Source: an uncultured Conexibacteraceae bacterium (GTDB lineage: Bacteria; Actinomycetota; Thermoleophilia; Solirubrobacterales; 70-9). Taken from it: a stretch of 64,000 nucleotides of DNA. Position numbers and translations under genes: made by a program. The stretch lies in assembly GCA_964594365.1 (NCBI GenBank), contig CAZQMB010000004.1:17257-81256 (forward strand), given 5' to 3'. Positions 5,729 to 49,542 of the stretch are shown in pieces; within the stretch, counting starts at the first letter, position 1; each line of letters starts with the position of its first letter. The notes under the pieces were generated by a model. The model made no database searches. It saw nothing but the letters and a program-made list of their open reading frames with translations, and was not told the origin of the DNA.

Positions 5729-7168
5729 GTGCCCTCCGACGTGACTCCCGAACCTCCCCGCAGTGTCGAGGCGGTGGATGCCCTCCCTCGTGATCGACTC
5801 CCCGAAAGGACGCGCCTGCGCCTGGAAGGAGGGAAGCGGATACGCGATGGAGTTCCTCGTTCCTCTCAGGGTATCTGGGAGGCACCGGACGACCGCCCAG
5901 ATCCGGTTTCGATCCTCGAGAAGCAGGCAAAGACACGGGTACCTGAACTCGTGCCGATCAGATACGGCCGGATGCTGGAGAGCGCGTTCGCCTTCTTCCG
6001 TGGCGGAGCCGCCATCATGGCTTGGGACCTCTCGAGAACGCCGACGAGCGAACTCCGGGTCCAAGCCTGCGGAGATGCGCACCTCGAGAACTTCGGAGCG
6101 TTCGCCGCTCCGGATCGCACGATGGTCTTCGACCTGAACGACTTCGACGAGACCCTCCCCGCTCCCTTCGAGTGGGACCTGAAACGTCTCGCCGCGAGCA
6201 TCGCGATCGCTGCGAGAGACATGGGCTTCAGCCGGGAGGACTCCCGAATGGCGACCCGTGCAGCGGGAACCTACTACCGGGACCTGATCGGGGAGTTCGC
6301 CGGCATGCGGTTCATCGAACTCTGGTACTCGCGAATACCGATGAAGAAGATCCTCGAATCCGTCGCCGCTACCGGAGACGAGCGGGCGATCAAGCAGGCC
6401 AAGAAGCAGGTCAAGAAGGCCAAGCATCGAACTGCGCTCGGGGCGCTCGCGAAGTTCGCCGTAAAGGACGGCGACGAGTGGAAGATCAAGCCCGAGCCGC
6501 CTCTGATCGAGACGGTCCCGATCGAGGCGCTCCCGGGTGGGCCGGACATGTTCAAGCAGGGTCTCCAGGACTACACAGACACGCTGTCGCCTGAGCGGCA
6601 ACTCGTGATGGAGCGGTATCGATTCGCCGATGTCGCGCGGAAGGTCGTCGGAGTCGGCTCGGTGGGAATGGTCTCGATGATGATCCTGATGGTCGGCGAC
6701 CGTGATGACGACCCACTGTTCCTCCAGCTTAAGCAGGCGACCGAGTCGGTTCTGGCGCAGTACGCCGGAGCCAGCGTGTATTCGCATCCCGGCGAGCGGG
6801 TGGTGCAGGGCCAGCGGATCATGCAGGCTGCAAGCGATTCATTCCTCGGCTGGGTCACCGGCGCGATGGGTCTGGGGCTCGACTACTACGTGCGGCAGCT
6901 TCGCGACATGAAGGGTTCGGTGGATCTGACCAAGATGGATCCGCAGGGACTCATCAACTACGCAGGGCTGTGCGGTAGTTGCCTCGCCCACGCTCATGCG
7001 AGATCCGGAGACGCTGCGGCCATGACCGGCTACATCGGTACGTGTGACGAAATGGTCGATGCGCTGAGTGACTTCGCCGAGGCGTACGCCGATCAGAACG
7101 AGAGGGATTTCGAGGCGCTCGTTGCCGCCGAGAAAGACGGGCGCATCGAAGCCGAGTTCGGCCTCTGA
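5729..7168 (+). CDS. DUF2252-family protein (function unknown)
   Basis: 479-aa ORF with a GTG start. Characteristic DUF2252 stretch: VPIRYGRMLESAFAFFRGGAAIMAWDL...CGDAHLENFGAF..VFDLNDFDET..PFEWDLKRLAAS. Confidence 0.85.
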   Translation: MPSDVTPEPPRSVEAVDALPRDRLPERTRLRLEGGKRIRDGVPRSSQGIWEAPDDRPDPVSILEKQAKTRVPELVPIRYGRMLESAFAFFRGGAAIMAWDLSRTPTSELRVQACGDAHLENFGAFAAPDRTMVFDLNDFDETLPAPFEWDLKRLAASIAIAARDMGFSREDSRMATRAAGTYYRDLIGEFAGMRFIELWYSRIPMKKILESVAATGDERAIKQAKKQVKKAKHRTALGALAKFAVKDGDEWKIKPEPPLIETVPIEALPGGPDMFKQGLQDYTDTLSPERQLVMERYRFADVARKVVGVGSVGMVSMMILMVGDRDDDPLFLQLKQATESVLAQYAGASVYSHPGERVVQGQRIMQAASDSFLGWVTGAMGLGLDYYVRQLRDMKGSVDLTKMDPQGLINYAGLCGSCLAHAHARSGDAAAMTGYIGTCDEMVDALSDFAEAYADQNERDFEALVAAEKDGRIEAEFGL

Positions 7169-7422: not shown

Positions 7423-8844
7423 TTGGCTGGAGACCAGACAGTAGTTCCGCCGCAGAATCTCGAGGCCGAGGAATCGGTGCTCGGAGCGATGATGGTCTCT
7501 GAGGCCGCTGTGGAGCCCGTGCTGCTGGAGGTCCGGCTGGCTCCCGAGGACTTCTACCGAGATCGACACAGGGTGATCTACCAGGCGATCCTCTCCCTCA
7601 ACGAGGAGAACGCCGCAATCGATGCCCTCACCGTCGCCGAGAGGCTCACACAGCAGGGGACCCTCGAGCAGGCCGGCGGGCGGGATGTGATCGCAGGCCT
7701 CGCGGCGACCGTCCCTGCAGCCGGAAACGCTGCGCACTACGCCAGGATCGTGAAGGAGAACTCCGTGCTTCGGAGACTCGACCGCGCGGCGAAGGAAATC
7801 CAGCAGTCGGTAGTCGATAGGGGCGACACCACCGGGGAGCTGGTCGAACGCGCAGAACGGCTCCTCTTCCAGGTGGCGCACACCGAACAGGCCTCGGACT
7901 TCAAGTCGGTGGAGGATGTCCTCCACGACGAGTGGGACAGACTCCAGCACCTGCACGAGAACAGCAACGAGCTGATCGGCACACCGTCCGGCTTTCGTGA
8001 CCTCGACAGCAAGACCGGTGGATTCCAGGCTGGGAACCTGATCGTGATCGCCGCCCGACCTTCGATGGGCAAGAGCACCTTCGTCTGCAATATCGCCGAG
8101 AACGTCGCGCTGAAAGCGAATCTCCCGGTGGCGCTCTTCTCGCTCGAGATGTCGGAGACGGAGCTCGCACAGAGGTTCCTCGCCTCTCAGGCCCGGATCA
8201 GCTCTGACAAGCTCAGGAGGGGGGCCGTTTCGGAATCCGATTGGCCGAAGGTGATGAGCGCAAACAACAGCCTCGCCAACGCCCCGTTGTGGATCGACGA
8301 CTCCGCCGACCTCAGCCTGCTCGAACTGCGGGCCAAGGCCCGCCGGCTCCATGCGGAGATGAAGCGCCAGAACGGTGAGAGGGGGCTCGGTTTGATCATC
8401 GTCGACTACATCCAGCTGCTCAGAGCCGATGACACTCACGCAAACCGGGTCGAACAGGTGGCTCAGTTCAGCCGTGGACTGAAGCTCCTCTCCCGCGAAC
8501 TCGAAGTGCCGGTGATCGCGGTCTCGCAGCTGTCGAGGGCACCCGAGCAGCGGCCCGACAAGCGGCCCATCCTGTCCGATCTGCGCGAATCAGGATCGAT
8601 CGAGCAGGACGCCGACATAGTCGGATTCCTCTATCGCGACGAGTACTACACGAAGGAGAACTCCGAGGAGCCAGGGATCGGCGATCTGATCCTCGCCAAG
8701 CACAGGAACGGTCCGGTCGGAGTAGTGAAGCTGGCCTTCATCTCCAGATACCCCAAGTTCGCCGATCGGGCGATCAGGGATGTACCGGTGGAACAAACCG
8801 CTACCGACGACCCGCCTGTGACCGACCTTGCAGAAGGTGGATGA
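7423..8844 (+). CDS. dnaB: Replicative DNA helicase DnaB
   Basis: TTG start. N-terminal PPQNLEAEESVLGAMM, Walker A ARPSMGKSTF, Walker B IIVDYIQLL, then VIAVSQLSR and SGSIEQDAD. No intein. Confidence 0.95.
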   Translation: MAGDQTVVPPQNLEAEESVLGAMMVSEAAVEPVLLEVRLAPEDFYRDRHRVIYQAILSLNEENAAIDALTVAERLTQQGTLEQAGGRDVIAGLAATVPAAGNAAHYARIVKENSVLRRLDRAAKEIQQSVVDRGDTTGELVERAERLLFQVAHTEQASDFKSVEDVLHDEWDRLQHLHENSNELIGTPSGFRDLDSKTGGFQAGNLIVIAARPSMGKSTFVCNIAENVALKANLPVALFSLEMSETELAQRFLASQARISSDKLRRGAVSESDWPKVMSANNSLANAPLWIDDSADLSLLELRAKARRLHAEMKRQNGERGLGLIIVDYIQLLRADDTHANRVEQVAQFSRGLKLLSRELEVPVIAVSQLSRAPEQRPDKRPILSDLRESGSIEQDADIVGFLYRDEYYTKENSEEPGIGDLILAKHRNGPVGVVKLAFISRYPKFADRAIRDVPVEQTATDDPPVTDLAEGG

Positions 8845-8845
8845 G

Positions 8846-9589
8846 GTGCGAGTGGCCGGCTCAGGGGCGCTCGCCGATGAACCCTCCATCTGCCCCAAGG
8901 GAACGTGTGACGGCTCCGGATGGATCCTGGGGCCGGAGGACATCGCTCGCCCGTGTGGCTGCCGGGAGCGCAAGATCGCCAAGGCGAAGTCTCACGGCGT
9001 CTCCTCTGTGATCCCGGCGAGATACCGGGGAGTCTCATTCGATCGACCGCCGGTGACACAGATCAACGACGCGGTGGTCAACCAGGTTCGCGAGTACTGC
9101 GATCGACTCGAAGAGAGCCTCGACTCCGGGCGGGGCCTCTGGTTCTTCGGCAACTCGGGCACCGGTAAGACGACCCTCGCGATGCTCGTCTCGAAACTCA
9201 CGCTCGAGGCTGGTCGAACCGCGGCGATCTACTCGATGCCGCAACTGCTCTCGAGGATCCGGCAGACCTTCGACTCGCTGCCGGGCGAGGAGTCATATCT
9301 GGACCTCTTCGGCCAACTCACCTCGGTCGACCTGCTGCACCTCGATGACCTCGGATCGGAGAATCGAACCGAGTGGGTTCTGGAACAGCTCTATGCGTTG
9401 ATCAACGAGCGGTACGAGGCAGAGAGGGCGCTGGTGGTCACGACCAACCTCACGGCCGAGCAGCTCGAGGAGCAGATCGGTGAACGGGTCGTGTCGCGTC
9501 TGGTCGAGATGTGCGGCGACCCGCTTCCTCTGTACGGCGACGACCGTCGTTTGAAGGTCGCTCCACCGCCGTCCGATTCCGCTTCATAA
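8846..9589 (+). CDS. DnaC/DnaI-type AAA+ ATPase (putative helicase loader) with N-terminal Cys4 motif
   Basis: Walker A GNSGTGKTT, Walker B LLHLDDLG, sensor-I VVTTN, C-terminal RVVSRL, and N-terminal CPKGTC...CGC. The start is ambiguous: TTG 8828, or GTG 8837, 8846 or 8852. GTG 8846 is preferred because AAGGTGG lies 5 nt upstream. The dnaB stop is at 8842-8844. Confidence 0.85.
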   Translation: MRVAGSGALADEPSICPKGTCDGSGWILGPEDIARPCGCRERKIAKAKSHGVSSVIPARYRGVSFDRPPVTQINDAVVNQVREYCDRLEESLDSGRGLWFFGNSGTGKTTLAMLVSKLTLEAGRTAAIYSMPQLLSRIRQTFDSLPGEESYLDLFGQLTSVDLLHLDDLGSENRTEWVLEQLYALINERYEAERALVVTTNLTAEQLEEQIGERVVSRLVEMCGDPLPLYGDDRRLKVAPPPSDSAS

Positions 9590-10942
<1,353 letters not shown>

Positions 10943-40081: not shown

Positions 40082-40254
40082 TCGCTCCGGGAAGGTTTTT
40101 CCCGCTCGGTGCGGGGCAGGAGGAATTCCGAGCCCGGACAGAGCCCCGGTCGTGAATATGATTCCGCGCCCGCGGAGGTCGTGGGAGTGTCCGAAAGCGT
40201 CGAGTGAAACCGAAGGGGTCAGAGATTCGAGATTCATCCCAGACGGGACCAGAG

Positions 40255-41598
40255 ATGGAGGAGAGACTCGCTCCCCTCGAGCCTCAGGAGGCATGGTCGA
40301 TCCTGAAGGCGGATCTGCGGACCATGGCCGGTCGCTCGACTTTCGACCTCTGGTTCTCGCAGCTGGAACCACTCCGGATGAGCAACGACGTCCTCTACCT
40401 CACTGGTCCGAATCACGTGATCGCTTGGGTGGACCGCCGTTACGAGGATCTGCTCGCCAGGTCGCTCCGCCAACTCGGGGGCCGGGTGAGCGAGATACGG
40501 CTGGTCCAGAGAGAGGGCCAGGTCCCTTCGGCGCCGCAGGGAGCGGGGTTCGCCGACTCGTCCATTCCTCGACAGCGAGATCGACAGACCTTCGACAGGT
40601 TCGTGATCGGCCCTGGAAACAGGATCGCGCACGGTGCTGCACTGGCCGTAGCCGAGGCGCCCGGGGAGGCCTACAACCCACTCTTCCTGCATGGGAACCC
40701 GGGTCTCGGGAAGAGCCATCTTCTCGGCGCGATTGCCGACTACATCGACCGCAACAACCCCGAGCTCAAGATCCATTCCACCACGGCCGAGAGTTTCACC
40801 GCCGAGTTCATCCAGGCGGTTCAGACCCGCGGAATCGAGGAGTTCAAGAACCGCTACCGGAGAGTGGACGTCCTCTTGATCGACGATGTCCAATTCCTCG
40901 AAGGAAAGGCACGAACCGCTGACGAGTTCTTCCACACCTTCAACGCCCTCCACCTCGTCGGGTCACAGATAGTCCTCTCGGCAGACCGGATGCCGAGTGA
41001 GTTGTCCACACTTGCCGACCGCTTACGGGAGAGATTCGAATGGGGTCTGGTGGTGGACATAGACCAGCCGGACCTCGCCACCAGAAGAGCGTTCCTCGAG
41101 ACCTTCGCTGCCGCCGAGGAGATCGAACTCCCTCCAGAGACGACCGAGGTCCTCGCCGACTACTCCCTTGCGAGTATCCGGGCAGTCGAGGGTGCCTTGA
41201 CACGCGTTATGGCCAGAGCGTCGCTGGGAGGCGGGGACCTGACACCGGAGCTGGTGGAGGCTGTCCTCGGAACAGCCGAACTCGAGCGGGAATTCGAAGA
41301 GAGGTCGGTCGTCACGGTCGACCAAATCAAATCGCTCGTGTCCGAACGATTCTCGGTGTCTCTCGAGGACCTCGATTCCTCCAAGCGATCGGAAAGGGTA
41401 TCTAGCGCCCGACAAGTGGCGATGACGCTAACCCGTGAGTTCACCGCCATGTCATTGCCCGCTATCGCCTCAGCCTTCTGCCGGAAGGATCACTCCACCG
41501 TCATCCACGGAATAAATCGAATCGATTCCAGGGTCCAGACGGACCGCGAGTTCGCAGACCTCGTGGAAAGATGCCGATCCGAGCTTCGAGCCGGATAG
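40255..41598 (+). CDS. dnaA: Chromosomal replication initiator DnaA
   Basis: The ATG at 40255 is preferred (MEERLAPLE...). TFDRFVIGPGN, Walker A GNPGLGKSHLL, LLIDDVQFL, and the DNA-binding signature KDHSTVIHG. Confidence 0.95.
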   Translation: MEERLAPLEPQEAWSILKADLRTMAGRSTFDLWFSQLEPLRMSNDVLYLTGPNHVIAWVDRRYEDLLARSLRQLGGRVSEIRLVQREGQVPSAPQGAGFADSSIPRQRDRQTFDRFVIGPGNRIAHGAALAVAEAPGEAYNPLFLHGNPGLGKSHLLGAIADYIDRNNPELKIHSTTAESFTAEFIQAVQTRGIEEFKNRYRRVDVLLIDDVQFLEGKARTADEFFHTFNALHLVGSQIVLSADRMPSELSTLADRLRERFEWGLVVDIDQPDLATRRAFLETFAAAEEIELPPETTEVLADYSLASIRAVEGALTRVMARASLGGGDLTPELVEAVLGTAELEREFEERSVVTVDQIKSLVSERFSVSLEDLDSSKRSERVSSARQVAMTLTREFTAMSLPAIASAFCRKDHSTVIHGINRIDSRVQTDREFADLVERCRSELRAG

Positions 41599-41700: not shown

Positions 41701-42810
41701 ATGAAACTCAAGACCACCAAACGCGAACTAGTCGATGCCCTCTCCGTTACCGCGAGGGCGACCTCGACTCGTAGTGCACTCCAGGCACTCTCTGGCGTCT
41801 TGCTGGACGCGAGTTCTGACGGGACCGTGGTGAGGGCAACTGACGCGGAGATCTCTCTCGAACTCTCTCTCGCCGCAGAAGTCGAGCTGCCCGGATCGAT
41901 TCTGGTCCCGGGACGGCTGTTAGCCGACGTTTCCAAGACCCTCCCTGATGGAGATGTGACCCTCGCGACCAGGGAGCCGGAAGGAGACCTCGAGATCAAG
42001 GCGGGGTCGTCGAGCTTTCACCTGCGTCTCTTGCAGGCCGAAGATTTCCCCAAGTTCCCGGATTCATCTGGAGACCCTGTATCGCTGGATGCGCAGGCTG
42101 TCTCCGAGACCATCGGAAGGGTTGCCGGCGCAGCGTCCACCGATGAGGGTAGGCCTGTTCTCACTGGTGTCTTCATGACCGCTGAAGCCGATTCACTCAC
42201 AATGGTCGCGACGGATTCCTATCGGCTCGCCGTCAAGACCACGAAGCTCTCGACCGCAGTCTCTTCTCAAATCGAAGCCAACGTACCCGCTCGCGCCTTG
42301 CGCGAGCTCTCACGTCTGATCGAAGCCGCTGGCGAAGACGCCGAGCTCCAACTCTGGTTGGGAGAGAATCAAGCGGTATTCGGTTGCGGTGGTACTCGCC
42401 TCGCATCTCGGCTGATCGATGGCCAGTTCCCGAACTACAAGCAACTGATACCCGACAAATTCGACCACGAGGTGAACCTGGACCGCGAGGAATTGCTCGA
42501 TGTGGTGAGGCGGGTATCGCAACTCGCACAGAGAAACGCCGCACTCAAACTCTCCTTCTCCGAGGGCGAGTTGACGATCTCGGCAGAGACGCAGGACCTC
42601 GGTGACGCCAAGGAGTCCATGCCAGTGTCATTCCAGGGTGAAGCTCTCGAGGTTGGTTTCAACCCTGATTTCGTGCGTGCAGGGCTCGAGAGCATCCAGG
42701 AGGACGAGATCGTCTTCAAGTTGATCTCACCATTGAGGCCGGGCTTGCTCGAACCTTCGGCTGGGGACGACTTCAGCTATCTGGTCATGCCGATCCGACT
42801 CAACGACTGA
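41701..42810 (+). CDS. dnaN: DNA polymerase III beta sliding clamp
   Basis: 369 aa with three-domain clamp layout; LIDGQFPNYKQLIP motif. Confidence 0.95.
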   Translation: MKLKTTKRELVDALSVTARATSTRSALQALSGVLLDASSDGTVVRATDAEISLELSLAAEVELPGSILVPGRLLADVSKTLPDGDVTLATREPEGDLEIKAGSSSFHLRLLQAEDFPKFPDSSGDPVSLDAQAVSETIGRVAGAASTDEGRPVLTGVFMTAEADSLTMVATDSYRLAVKTTKLSTAVSSQIEANVPARALRELSRLIEAAGEDAELQLWLGENQAVFGCGGTRLASRLIDGQFPNYKQLIPDKFDHEVNLDREELLDVVRRVSQLAQRNAALKLSFSEGELTISAETQDLGDAKESMPVSFQGEALEVGFNPDFVRAGLESIQEDEIVFKLISPLRPGLLEPSAGDDFSYLVMPIRLND

Positions 42811-42818
42811 GGCCTTCG

Positions 42819-43931
42819 GTGATTGCCTCGTTGGAGGCCAGGGGTTACCGCAACCTGGTCGGGGAGTTGTCGCTCCCCATAGATCCCAACTTGACCGTGT
42901 TCCATGGGCCGAATGGCGCGGGTAAGACCAATCTGCTGGATGCGCTCCATTTCGGACTCACAGGAGCCTCGATGCGTTCCGGCACGATCAAGAATTCGAT
43001 CGGCTTCGACGCGGAGAGCGCGCGGGTAGAGGTCGAGTTCTCGGATCGGACCGGCACGATGCACAAGACACTCGCCTCTCTGGATCGCTCAGGTCAGCGG
43101 CGGAACCTCTTGGACGGGGCAGCTCCGACCGCATCTGTACCTCTGCCGAGGGTCGCCCTCTTCCATCCGGATCATCTCCAGACCATCAAGGGCCCTCCAG
43201 CTCACCGACGGGCATTGGCAGATCAGGTGGCCGGGTCCCTGTCCCCCTCGCAGGCAGATCTCCGGGCACGGTATGGAAGGACCCTTGCTCAACGCAACGC
43301 GCAGCTGAGAAGGGTGAGGGCAGGAGAGATCGCGGTTGCCGAACTCGAAGTGTGGGACAGCCGTCTGGCCGCAGATGCGCAGCCTCTGGTCGCTTCACGT
43401 CGAGCAGCGATCGATAGCCTTGCTCCGCATTTCCGCGAGGCCGCTACCACTCTCGGACTGATCGAGCCAGACCTTTCCTACAAGACCCGGGCTGGAGGGG
43501 ATGAAGAGTCGATCCGCTTGCGTCTGGCCGAACTGCGCGCCGAGGACCCAGGACGTGCTTATGTCATGTATGGCCCCCATCTCGATGATCTGCATGTAGA
43601 GGCGGAGGGAAGGGCCCTCAAGCAATTCGGGTCTCAGGGTCAGCAACGCGCTGCGGTCCTCGCGTTACTGCTCGGTGAGCGCGCAGCGTTGGCCGGAGCC
43701 GGCAGGGAGGCTCCGCTCCTGCTGTTGGATGACGTGATGAGCGAGCTGGATCCCCGTCGCCGCGAGTTGCTGATCGGGGCCGCTGTGTCCGGCGGCCAGG
43801 TCGTGGTGACCGCCACAGATCTTTCTCAGGTTCCCTCGGAAGGGCTGGCGCCGAGCAGTACCTCGTATCGGGTCGAGGCTGGCCGCGTGGACAGCGGGTC
43901 CGATTCCCCCTCGGTGGCGGAGGCCGCCTGA
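42819..43931 (+). CDS. recF: DNA replication and repair protein RecF
   Basis: GTG start. Walker A GPNGAGKTNLLDA, signature GSQGQQR, Walker B LLLLDDVMSELD. Confidence 0.94.
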   Translation: MIASLEARGYRNLVGELSLPIDPNLTVFHGPNGAGKTNLLDALHFGLTGASMRSGTIKNSIGFDAESARVEVEFSDRTGTMHKTLASLDRSGQRRNLLDGAAPTASVPLPRVALFHPDHLQTIKGPPAHRRALADQVAGSLSPSQADLRARYGRTLAQRNAQLRRVRAGEIAVAELEVWDSRLAADAQPLVASRRAAIDSLAPHFREAATTLGLIEPDLSYKTRAGGDEESIRLRLAELRAEDPGRAYVMYGPHLDDLHVEAEGRALKQFGSQGQQRAAVLALLLGERAALAGAGREAPLLLLDDVMSELDPRRRELLIGAAVSGGQVVVTATDLSQVPSEGLAPSSTSYRVEAGRVDSGSDSPSVAEAA

Positions 43932-43934
43932 ATC

Positions 43935-44246
43935 GTGGCCCCGCGCAAGCAGCCGGAGAGAATAGGTGTGCCCCTCGACCGCCTTACCGCCTCCCTCGCT
44001 CCCTCCACCCCTCTCGGGTCCGTTCAAACTGTCTGGCGCAACGCGGTGGGTGACCGGATCGCTGACCGTTGTAATCCCGTGAAAGCTCAGGAGGGCGTCC
44101 TCACCGTGGTTTGTGAGAGCTCGGCCTGGTCCCAGCAACTCACGATGATGCAGGTCGACCTGTTGGAAAGGCTGAGAGCGGAGATCGGTGATCCCGCCCA
44201 TGCACCAACCGAACTTCGATTCGTCGTGACGGACGATCAGGCGTGA
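43935..44246 (+). CDS. dciA: DUF721 domain protein (DciA-type, canonical recF-gyrB slot)
   Basis: VWRNAVGDRIADRCNPVKAQEGVLTVVCESSAWSQQLTMMQVDLLERL aligns by eye to the DUF721 core of the mycobacterial recF-gyrB intergenic gene. GTG start 4 nt after the recF stop. Confidence 0.82.
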   Translation: MAPRKQPERIGVPLDRLTASLAPSTPLGSVQTVWRNAVGDRIADRCNPVKAQEGVLTVVCESSAWSQQLTMMQVDLLERLRAEIGDPAHAPTELRFVVTDDQA

Positions 44247-44433: not shown

Positions 44434-46884
<2,451 letters not shown>

Positions 46885-46908: not shown

Positions 46909-49542
46909 ATGGCCGACGAACCCAAGGACGTCAACTCCGAAGCGATCGTGGATCGCATCGAGGAGCGCGATCTCGATCAGGAGATGCGCTCTTCCTACCT
47001 CGATTACGCCATGAGCGTGATCGTCGGGCGCGCGCTTCCTGACGTAAAGGACGGCCTCAAACCGGTCCACCGCCGGGTGCTCTACGCCATGCACGATCTG
47101 GGCCTTCAGCCGAATCGCGCTTACCGCAAGTGTGCGTTCATCGTCGGAGAGGTCATGGGCAAGTACCACCCCCACGGCGACTCGGCCATCTACGAGACCT
47201 TGGTCCGGATGGCTCAGGACTTCTCGCTTCGTTATCCGTTGGTCGACGGTCAGGGCAACTTCGGCTCGATCGACGACGATCCGGCGGCTGCCATGCGTTA
47301 CACGGAGGCGCGTCTCGATTCCCTCGCCACCGAGATGCTTCGCGACATCGATGCCGACACGGTCGACTTCGGACCGAATTACGACGAGTCGACCCGCGAG
47401 CCGCTTCTGCTCCCCGCCCGTTTCCCGAATCTCCTGGTCAACGGCGCTGCGGGCATCGCGGTCGGGATGGCGACGAACATCCCGCCGCACAACCTCCGCG
47501 AGGTCGCGGCTGCGGTCGAGGCCTACATCGACGATCCTTCGATCGACCTCAAGGGTCTGATGAAGCACGTGAAAGGTCCGGACTTCCCGGGCGGCGGGAC
47601 GATCCTCGGTGTCGGCGGTGTTCGCGACGCCTATGCAAGCGGCAAGGGGAGCCTCAAGTTGAGGGCGACCGCTCACATCGAGGAGATGAAGAAGGGTCGC
47701 GAGGCGATCGTGGTCACCGAGCTGCCGTTCCAGGTCAAGAAGGGTGGCGACGGCGGTTTGATCACGAAGATCGCCGATCTGGTCAGGGAGAAGAAACTGA
47801 CGGGAATCGCCGACCTGCGTGACGAGTCGGATCGCAACGGGATGCGACTCGTGATCGAACTCAAGAAGGGCAGCGGACCGTCGACGGTGGTCTTGAACCA
47901 GCTCTACAAGCGGACCTCGATGCAGATCTCCTTCGGCATCAACATGGTCGCTCTGGTGGATGGAGTCCCCAAGACCCTGGGTCTGAGGGAACTGATCGAG
48001 CACTACGTGGGCCATCAGAAGGAAGTCATCACCCGCCGCAGTCAGTTCGAGCTCGCACGCGCCGAAGCTCGCGCGCACATCCTCGACGGGCTGCTGATCG
48101 CTCTCTCGAAGCTGGATCAGGTGATCAAGCTGATCCGCGCGTCGAAGGACCCAGAGACCGCCCGCGAGGGATTGATGTCCAAGTTCGGTCTCAGTCAACC
48201 GCAGGCACAGGCGATCCTCGACATGCGATTGCAGCGCTTGACCGCTCTGGAGTCCGACAAGATCAAGGAGGAGCACGACGAGCTGACCAAGCGGATCAAG
48301 GAGCTTCGTACGCTTCTCGCCGACGAGAAGAAGGTTCTCGCTCTGGTCAAGTCGGAGCTCGCCGAAGTCGTCGAGCGGTTCGGAGACGATCGTCGCACCA
48401 AGATCGGCAAGGCCGAGGGCGACATGGAGATCGAGGATCTGATCGCGGATGAGCAGATGGTCGTCTCCCTCACCTCATCCGGTTACATCAAGCGGATCCC
48501 GCTCGCGAGCTACCGCAAGCAGCACAGAGGCGGCCGAGGTGTGCGCGGGATGGATACAAAGGAGGGTGACTACATCGAGCACCTCCGCATCTGTTCCACC
48601 CACGACTACCTCCTCTTCTTCACCAACCGGGGCAAGGTCTATCGCCTCCGTGCCCACGAACTTCCCGAGGGCTCCCGCCAGGCAAAGGGCCGTGCGCTGG
48701 TCAACCTCATCCCGCTCCGGGACAAGGAGAAGGTGATGGCGATGATCCCGACTCGGGATTTCTCGGAAGGCAAGTTCCTGGTCTTCGCGACGGCCGACGG
48801 CATGATCAAGAAGACGGAGTTCATCGACTACAACACCCCGATCCGGGCCGATGGGATCATCGCGATAAAGATCAAGAAGAACGATGCCTTGGTCGATGTC
48901 CGGTTGACCAACGGCACCGACGACATCATGTTGATCTCCAAGTCAGGTCACGCCGTCAGGTTCAAGGAGAAACTGGTCAGGGGAATGAGTCGCGACACCT
49001 CGGGTGTCAAGGGAATGAACGTCAGCGAGAAGACCAACGCCGTCATCGCGATGGAGGTCGTCCAGCCGAAGTCGCAACTCTTGGTGGTGACCGAGAACGG
49101 CTACGGCAAGAGGACCCCGATCGAGGATTACCCGATCAAGGGACGAGGTACCAAGGGCGTCTTGACTGCGAAGTTGACCGCGAAGAAGGGTGGCCTCGCG
49201 GGCGCTCTGGTGGTCGACGAGAACCAGGAACTCCTTTTCATCTCGCAGAAGGGGATGGTGCAGCGCACCTCGGCAGGGGAGATCTCCCAGACGGGACGCG
49301 CGACCCAAGGTGTCAAGGTGATGAATCTCAAGTCCGGCGACAAGGTCAGCGCAACCGCACTCGTAGCCGAGCCAGACGAGCAAGAGCTCGAGAGGGCTGC
49401 GGCGAGTGCCGACCCTCCCACCAAGGGTGGCGCTGCTCAGAAGGCCCCCACGAAGAAACCTGCCGCGAAGAAGACGACCGCCAAGAAATCCTCGGCGGCG
49501 AAACCACGGACCAAGAAGCCTCCCGCGAAGAAGAAGAAGTAG
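46909..49542 (+). CDS. gyrA: DNA gyrase subunit A (with Lys-rich C-terminal tail)
   Basis: [14 protein letters not shown], active-site region [10 protein letters not shown], GyrA-box-like QRRGGRG-type [11 protein letters not shown], and C-terminal beta-pinwheel repeats. Confidence 0.96.

Follow-up and report, generated by a model that had tools for sequence, protein, structure and literature searches.

Can one bacterium keep both DciA and a DnaC/DnaI-like ATPase for the same replicative helicase, and what would each of them do there? The question is raised by a stretch of 64,000 nucleotides of contig CAZQMB010000004.1, from an uncultured Conexibacteraceae bacterium of the order Solirubrobacterales (the window), in which a gene for a DnaC/DnaI-like AAA+ protein adjoins dnaB 34.3 kb upstream of dciA. 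Brezellec et al. 2016 (PMC5109545) described dciA and a resident dna[CI] gene as mutually exclusive, dciA being lost when dna[CI] arrives, and a structural paper of 2026 (PMC13696075) repeats the mutual exclusivity of DciA and DnaC/DnaI and proposes as its cause a docking target on DnaB that the loaders share. The initial annotation of the window had reported both genes, about 34 kb apart, and had noted that they are reported as largely exclusive elsewhere; the coordinates and the literature agree with it on both counts.

We find that the coexistence of DciA with the AAA+ protein is a fixed and stable state of the order Solirubrobacterales and is not transitional. The reading that we prefer, tentatively and with a probability of about 0.45, is that dciA, in the ancestral slot between recF and gyrB, encodes a functional DciA cut down to the DUF721 domain, and that it would form with the AAA+ protein a stable two-protein system, each partner having a separate and non-redundant role in the handling of DnaB.

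A DciA reduced to the DUF721 domain

The frame at 43935-44246 was confirmed to encode a real DciA. In a Pfam profile search its product matches PF05258 (DciA/DUF721) with 65.6 bits (E 4.9e-18) against a cut-off of 24 bits, as the initial annotation had expected of the 103-aa open reading frame (ORF), with residues 27-87 aligned on positions 22-82 of the 89 positions of the hidden Markov model, and no other PF05258 match occurs in the genome (1.63 Mb, 93% complete). The gene starts with GTG, 3 nt past the stop of recF (TGA 43929-43931) and with GGAGG 11 nt 5' of it; the frame stays open for 103 aa and its translation holds the core GVLTVVCESSAWSQQLTMMQVDLLERL. Public gene calls in close relatives yield the identical length of 103 aa. 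The conserved tryptophan of DciA is retained as W65 in SSAWSQQL. The scores stay under the cut-offs of both mycobacterial-type NCBIfam equivalogs (for PRK03195, 52.8 bits with a cut-off of 246).

The AlphaFold2 model of the protein, built on a shallow alignment of 4 sequences, has a predicted local distance difference test score (pLDDT) of 72.7. Its best Foldseek match in the PDB is 7YKM, the DUF721 domain of D. radiodurans DciA (E 1.1e-5, 36% identity, template modelling score 0.74 on the target), followed by 8A3V, V. cholerae DciA bound to DnaB (ranks 2-3), and 4TPS, DnaA domain I; the predicted fold is thus the KH-like, DnaA-domain-I-like fold of DUF721. The protein has about 5 aa ahead of the domain start and ends 16 aa past the Pfam match, with no N- or C-terminal extension. 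DnaB-binding extensions at either end are typical of the studied DciAs of Groups 2 and 3 and are unnecessary for membership in the family. As the search for homologous proteins with DciA, which used a word index, gave 5 close relatives only, the comparison of DciAs below is based on the loci found by genome search.

The gene lies in the replication operon, in the order dnaA-dnaN-recF-dciA-gyrB-gyrA:

dnaA, 40204-41598, + strand, start of the replication operon (ORF list with translations)
dnaN, 41701-42810, + strand (ORF list with translations)
recF, 42819-43931, + strand, 5' neighbour of dciA, its stop 3 nt before the dciA start (ORF list)
dciA, 43935-44246, + strand, 103 aa, DUF721 domain only (minimal DciA), PF05258
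gyrB, 44434-46884, + strand, 3' neighbour of dciA (ORF list, synteny by tblastn)
gyrA, 46909-49542, + strand, after gyrB

All 32 loci that were examined in the class show the order recF-dciA-gyrB. The slot between recF and gyrB is the one given for dciA in Actinobacteria by Brezellec et al. 2016 (PMC5109545) and the one in which DciA of Mycobacterium tuberculosis is found, so that the placement in a canonical position, also proposed in the initial annotation, is correct.

A DnaC/DnaI-like AAA+ gene joined to dnaB

The second gene of the pair stands between dnaB and purA:

dnaB, 7423-8844, + strand, replicative helicase (PF03796 334.6 bits, PF00772 101.7 bits)
DnaC/DnaI-like AAA+ ATPase gene, 8828-9589, + strand, joined to dnaB (PF01695 35.9 bits)
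purA, 9599-10942, + strand, 3' anchor of the AAA+ insertion site

The DnaB protein matches DnaB chains in the PDB with E values from 1e-125 to 1e-100. The longest frame of the AAA+ gene begins with TTG at 8828; a likelier start is the GTG at 8846, 1 nt past the dnaB stop, which is preceded by the Shine-Dalgarno-like GAAGGTGGA at 8833-8841, within the end of dnaB. Whichever candidate start is taken, the gene abuts or overlaps dnaB and, judged by this arrangement, is translationally coupled to it. Orthologs in relatives are called at 247-250 aa.

The protein scores 35.9 bits with PF01695, the DnaC/DnaI/IstB AAA+ domain (cut-off 24.1). Its best NCBIfam model is PRK08116, with 142.4 bits and a cut-off of 189, ahead of those of DnaC, IstB and DnaI; the scores with the DnaC model PRK07952 and the DnaI model PRK08939 are 61.8 bits (cut-off 357) and 51.3 bits (cut-off 228). 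Since all three curated models score under their cut-offs, the protein is, on these profile scores, a divergent relative of the DnaC/DnaI loaders that by NCBI criteria stands outside the defined families. By sequence its closest relatives in the PDB, with E values near 1e-11, are the DnaC proteins of Aquifex and E. coli and Geobacillus DnaI, and the AlphaFold2 model (pLDDT 75.8) has as its top Foldseek matches 6QEM (E. coli DnaC in the DnaB-DnaC complex), 3ECC (Aquifex DnaC) and 5HE8 (S. aureus DnaI), with IstB and DnaA coming after them.

All 37 orthologs aligned keep unchanged GxxGTGKT at 108-115 (Walker A), DD at 173-174 (Walker B) and TTN at 205-207, as well as R220, S223-R224 and R241. 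In the model two helices (137-149 and 157-166) stand between beta2 and beta3, as expected of the initiator-specific motif, and the protein thus combines a predicted initiator-clade AAA+ fold with intact ATPase motifs. Four N-terminal cysteines, C22-x4-C27-x15-C43-x-C45, are also invariant in the 37 orthologs, in a part of the protein whose model is unreliable for residues 1-40; the motif suggests a zinc module like that of DnaI.

Many Solirubrobacterales orthologs of the AAA+ protein are longer at the C-terminus by about 20 aa, a tail that ends in the conserved ...SLGxGxGxxLGPLDH (ortholog alignment; the gene end in the window is at 9560-9589). This tail is missing from the genus of the window and from several other sublineages, and it resembles a short motif for the docking of some partner.

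Distribution, residency and selection of the pair

Three samples of genomes were compared: 41 of the same genus, family and order, 151 of the whole class and 401 of the phylum. The 41 closer relatives all have an ortholog of the AAA+ gene, at 48-97% identity, and 40 of them have DciA; the public records of the closest orthologs are freshwater and soil metagenome-assembled genomes labelled Solirubrobacterales (class Thermoleophilia, Actinomycetota). In the class-wide sample the AAA+ ortholog is present in 26/26 Solirubrobacterales, and outside the order a weak, sporadic match was seen in just one of 125 genomes. The phylum sample adds nine Solirubrobacterales genomes, all nine with both genes. 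Taken together, both genes were found in 49 of the 50 Solirubrobacterales genomes tested for both, which span six families. The sister orders carry DciA without the AAA+ gene, and in the 20 of their genomes examined DciA lies between recF and gyrB without exception.

The order rplI-dnaB-AAA+-purA is kept, with dnaB directly upstream on the same strand in 101/106 loci. Identity of the AAA+ protein correlates with that of DnaB (Spearman 0.79) and of PurA (0.82); because its divergence follows these two proteins and the gene order is fixed, the gene has been vertically inherited. In the sister family f7 dnaB directly abuts purA, and this junction therefore marks the empty insertion site.

Within the genus the ratio of nonsynonymous to synonymous substitution rates (dN/dS) is 0.04-0.12 for the AAA+ gene and 0.04-0.10 for dnaB, 0.13-0.17 for dciA and 0.07-0.11 for recF. 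Purifying selection thus acts on both members of the pair, DciA evolving faster than its neighbours yet being clearly constrained; the initial annotation had proposed this comparison, and it shows constraint on either gene. Both are retained in the reduced genomes of this genus, of 1.5-1.7 Mb.

Finding PF01695 and PF05258 in one genome is common, as the IstB genes of IS21 and prophage genes also carry PF01695. The published rule is limited to resident dna[CI] genes, so that the residency of the AAA+ gene is the key point. Brezellec et al. 2016 regarded as resident a gene that is monophyletic, congruent with the species tree and in a conserved context, and the AAA+ gene is resident in all these respects. 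The rule of exclusivity is therefore broken in Solirubrobacterales (49/50 genomes with both genes), whereas it is obeyed in the family f24 described below. According to the initial annotation, co-occurrence common in the clade would take away the novelty of the case; the pairing is indeed common, and its spread over the clade makes the exception to the rule a stronger one, the pair being fixed.

The pairing is already visible in published data. Supplementary Data 1 of Brezellec et al. 2016 lists for Conexibacter woesei, uncommented, one AAA protein and one PF05258 protein, and the table of the same paper gives for R. xylanophilus one AAA protein and no DciA. Our search of the literature found no published discussion of this coexistence of DciA and AAA+ protein.

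Loss of the DciA extension on the stem of the order

The twelve Solirubrobacterales DciAs examined are all short, with 96-103 aa, ending 3-17 aa past the domain. In families f7-f10 an extension of 63-96 aa follows the domain in 15 of 16 loci, made of a proline-rich linker and a conserved helical motif of the type DPxLRxLVxRAAxASLAR. In a tree of RecF and GyrB the Solirubrobacterales are monophyletic (support 98), and f9 (85) and then f7 (83), both long-tailed, are nearest to them. As these nearest relatives are long-tailed, the stem branch on which the AAA+ gene was gained is also the one to which the loss of the tail maps.

The one DciA of f7-f10 without extension (locus L155 of genome G055, family f10) stops 12 aa past the domain, and its frame remains open for a long way on the N-terminal side; frameshift, misassembly and genuine variation are all candidate causes.

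A family with the textbook replacement

In the phylum sample of 401 genomes f24 is the sole other clade with a fixed homolog of the AAA+ gene, at 34-39% identity. Its AAA+ protein is a full member of PRK08116 (241 bits) and is encoded behind a gene for a DnaD-domain protein. No match to PF05258 was obtained in any f24 genome, and the gap between recF and gyrB is 115-238 nt in 10/10 of them, too short for dciA, which has therefore been deleted. Family f24 shows the textbook replacement, in which a DnaD-like and a DnaI-like gene are gained and dciA is gone, unlike the state in Solirubrobacterales. The AAA+ proteins of f24 and of the window are alike in that the former is the closest homolog outside the order, in the Cys-rich N-terminus and in being fixed in their clades; they differ in the DnaD-domain partner upstream in f24, in the location of the f24 gene away from dnaB and in the deletion of dciA. 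At the sequence level, a tblastn search of the whole genome of the window with two f24 DnaD-domain proteins returned nothing for a DnaD-like partner (E > 0.9).

Directly behind the dnaD-like/AAA+ pair, f24 has a conserved gene whose product measures 240-290 aa (L121:2141-2869, L132:875-1753). The protein has no Pfam match, and the gene may be a third part of that replication module.

Comparison with known systems

The closest parallels of the DciA of the window in build are the domain-only, 'Group 4'-like DciAs of Thermotoga maritima and Bacteroides fragilis (Blaine et al. 2022), which likewise have about 100 aa and no helicase-anchoring extension, and the DUF721 domain of 7YKM from D. radiodurans, which it resembles in its PF05258 domain and matching predicted fold; the recF-gyrB slot is a further shared trait. 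It differs from the domain-only DciAs in that their organisms are without a resident AAA+ loader, and in that its ancestor has nearest relatives with a C-terminal extension. By the envelope of its Pfam match (27-87) it would be a Group 1 DciA, the usual one for Thermoleophilia according to Blaine et al. 2022. With DciA of M. tuberculosis (Rv0004; Mann et al. 2017, PMC5720831) it shares the phylum, the recF-gyrB position, the DUF721 (DnaA-N-terminal-like) domain and the conserved tryptophan, W65 probably corresponding to W113 by the NCBIfam PRK03195 alignment; the mycobacterial protein, however, has 167-187 aa and a DnaB-binding N-terminal extension and is the sole loader in its genome. With V. 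cholerae DciA in complex with DnaB (8A3V; PMC9912922, PMC13696075) it shares the fold of the DUF721 domain, but not the C-terminal helical domain that docks on the linker helix-docking helix (LH-DH) module of DnaB.

The AAA+ protein resembles DnaC and DnaI (6QEL/6QEM, 3ECC, 4M4W, 5HE8) in its initiator-clade fold, Walker A and B, sensor I and box VII arginine, and the Cys-rich module at its N-terminus is reminiscent of the N-domain with which DnaI binds zinc. It is unlike them in that its gene adjoins dnaB, theirs being linked to dnaT or to dnaD/dnaB(Bsu), in its coexistence with DciA and in that the tblastn search with the f24 proteins found no DnaD-like partner in the genome.

How the two proteins may share the helicase

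Identities, synteny, distribution, selection and domain loss are shown by the data above; all protein-protein contacts and the division of labour proposed here are inferred. In V. cholerae the C-terminal domain of DciA anchors on the LH-DH module of DnaB while the N-terminal DUF721 domain wedges the cracked ring (PMC13696075). On the stem of Solirubrobacterales the AAA+ gene was inserted between dnaB and purA, and on the same branch DciA dropped the helical C-terminal extension kept by the nearest sister families. The AAA+ protein would then be the main DnaB-binding, ATP-switched loader, by means of its Cys4 N-terminal module and an AAA+ oligomer, and the trimmed DciA would retain a role of its core domain, be it as wedge at the cracked ring, in contact with single-stranded DNA or in contact with DnaA. 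Loss of the anchor would remove the competition for a single docking site on DnaB; with the anchor gone, DciA would leave that site to the AAA+ protein, which could explain why both are kept. Divided roles are the reading favoured by the lineage-specific loss of the DciA extension. A more specific form, rather unlikely in our estimate, is a composite loader in which the AAA+ protein, with its ATP switch, would occupy the LH-DH docking site while the DUF721 wedge of DciA would act on the same DnaB hexamer. If true, this would be a natural hybrid of 'ancestral' and 'phage-derived' loading, enabled by the deletion of the DciA anchor.

The roles could instead be split by pathway, one protein loading the helicase at oriC with DnaA and the other at PriA-type fork restart. 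Such a split is conceivable, since E. coli DnaC and B. subtilis DnaI act in both initiation and restart, and it would suit the conservation of both genes under purifying selection and their positions, dciA in the operon of the origin and the AAA+ gene beside dnaB. We know of no bacterium, however, that divides initiation and restart between DciA and a DnaC-type loader, and as this explanation also leaves the loss of the DciA tail on the same branch unaccounted for, we regard it as unlikely. That the AAA+ protein is the sole loader, the bare DUF721 protein being repurposed for the modulation of DnaA or DnaB or for a role linked to the recF-gyrB operon, would agree with the coupling of the AAA+ gene to dnaB, with the faster evolution of DciA compared to its neighbours and with the loss of the type of extension that anchors V. 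cholerae DciA on DnaB (PMC13696075). It is made distinctly unlikely by the persistence of domain, slot and W65, by the V. cholerae complex, in which it is DUF721 itself and not the tail that wedges the ring open (PMC13696075), and by the many phyla in which a domain-only DciA is the sole candidate loader (Blaine et al. 2022).

The converse assignment, with DciA as sole loader and the AAA+ protein doing other work on DnaB, as regulator, in a checkpoint or as a domesticated ATPase of a mobile element, is improbable to the same degree. In family f11 and in many phyla a domain-only DciA suffices and the AAA+ gene is absent, the AAA+ protein lies under the curated cut-offs of DnaC, DnaI and PRK08116 and is without the DnaD-like partner of f24, and in the comparison of models IstB and DnaA also appear as close structural relatives; yet the gene is tightly coupled to dnaB (101/106 loci), the catalytic motifs do not vary, dN/dS is the same as for dnaB, and the proteins that match its product best in sequence and structure are genuine loaders, among them DnaC in complex with DnaB. 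As for a transient intermediate midway through the replacement of DciA by a DnaC/DnaI-type loader, which the initial annotation had listed first, both genes are present as it predicts, replacement is the usual outcome (Brezellec et al. 2016) and f24 shows it in the same phylum. The pair is nevertheless order-wide (49/50 genomes, six families, AAA+ proteins as little as 48% identical), purifying selection acts on either gene and both are kept even in genomes reduced to 1.5-1.7 Mb; we reject this explanation on the data of distribution and selection and give it hardly any weight.

Several points weigh against the two-protein system that we prefer. Besides the scores of the AAA+ protein below the curated NCBIfam cut-offs, its 40 N-terminal residues (1-40), where the DnaB-binding module would lie, are poorly modelled. 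Three genomes of family f3 (L113, L118 and L119) no longer have the AAA+ gene beside dnaB; linkage of the gene to purA and DciA itself are still kept there. Gene gain and tail loss are linked by one event in evolution only, the supports that join f9 and f7 are only moderate (85 and 83), and f11 has no settled place in the RecF and GyrB tree. This family belongs to the same class and has short DciAs (4/4) without the AAA+ gene, and DciAs of the domain-only kind are also frequent in Bacteroidota, Thermotogota and further groups that have no AAA+ loader (Blaine et al. 2022); DUF721 by itself may thus be enough for loading. Finally, the 'determinant residue' of DnaB, S296 in V. cholerae and G299 in E. 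coli (Marsin et al. 2021), gives no signal in either direction: it is Ser279 in the window, in a column that varies freely in Solirubrobacterales and the sister orders.

Bearing on the exclusivity rule

Solirubrobacterales are abundant in soil and freshwater, and they challenge the view of DciA and DnaC/DnaI as exclusive alternatives. A pair kept for so long, with a DciA that lacks the DnaB-docking type of extension, is a natural experiment on the shared-site explanation. Surveys based on names or on KEGG orthologs overlook the case, the NCBI label of the AAA+ gene being merely 'ATP-binding protein'. Two questions become testable, namely what a bare DUF721 domain is capable of alone, the function of the bare domain of 'Group 4' DciAs having been named as an open question by Blaine et al. 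2022, and whether a single helicase can be served by DciA together with an AAA+ loader. Experiments are feasible with cultured relatives, e.g. Conexibacter woesei.

Features of DnaB and of the neighbouring loci

Compared to the sister orders, DnaB of Solirubrobacterales has an insertion of 5-12 residues after the RAKARRL helix; in the window it is HAEMKRQNGERG, at 8340-8375 (DnaB residues about 307-318). Five columns of DnaB fully separate Solirubrobacterales from the sister orders: E170 in the linker helix, 222, 252, 262 and 296. Insertion and columns might reflect adaptation to the AAA+ partner or merely the long stem branch, and the columns were discounted as evidence, since a branch of this length is expected to yield them anyway.

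The dnaB gene of the window is uninterrupted. In many relatives DnaB is matched only in pieces, e.g. by residues 218-471 alone (loci L032, L046, L050, L054, L059, L060, L062, L063, L065, L066, L070, L071, L105, L107, L108 and L116), which fits inteins in dnaB.

In f11, f10 and f8 (L137-L142, L145) the gene behind dnaB, almost touching it, encodes a protein of about 490 aa. We considered whether in f11 this might be another loader coupled to dnaB and rejected the idea, as by its sequence the protein resembles chorismate-binding enzymes of the PabB/TrpE type. In locus L118 of family f3 the place of dnaB is occupied by an ORF of 153 aa and a divergently oriented one of 331 aa. In the genus of the window a gene for a 479-aa protein, at 5729-7168, lies between rplI and dnaB; since in most relatives rplI is only about 250-700 nt upstream of dnaB, this insertion appears to be lineage-specific.

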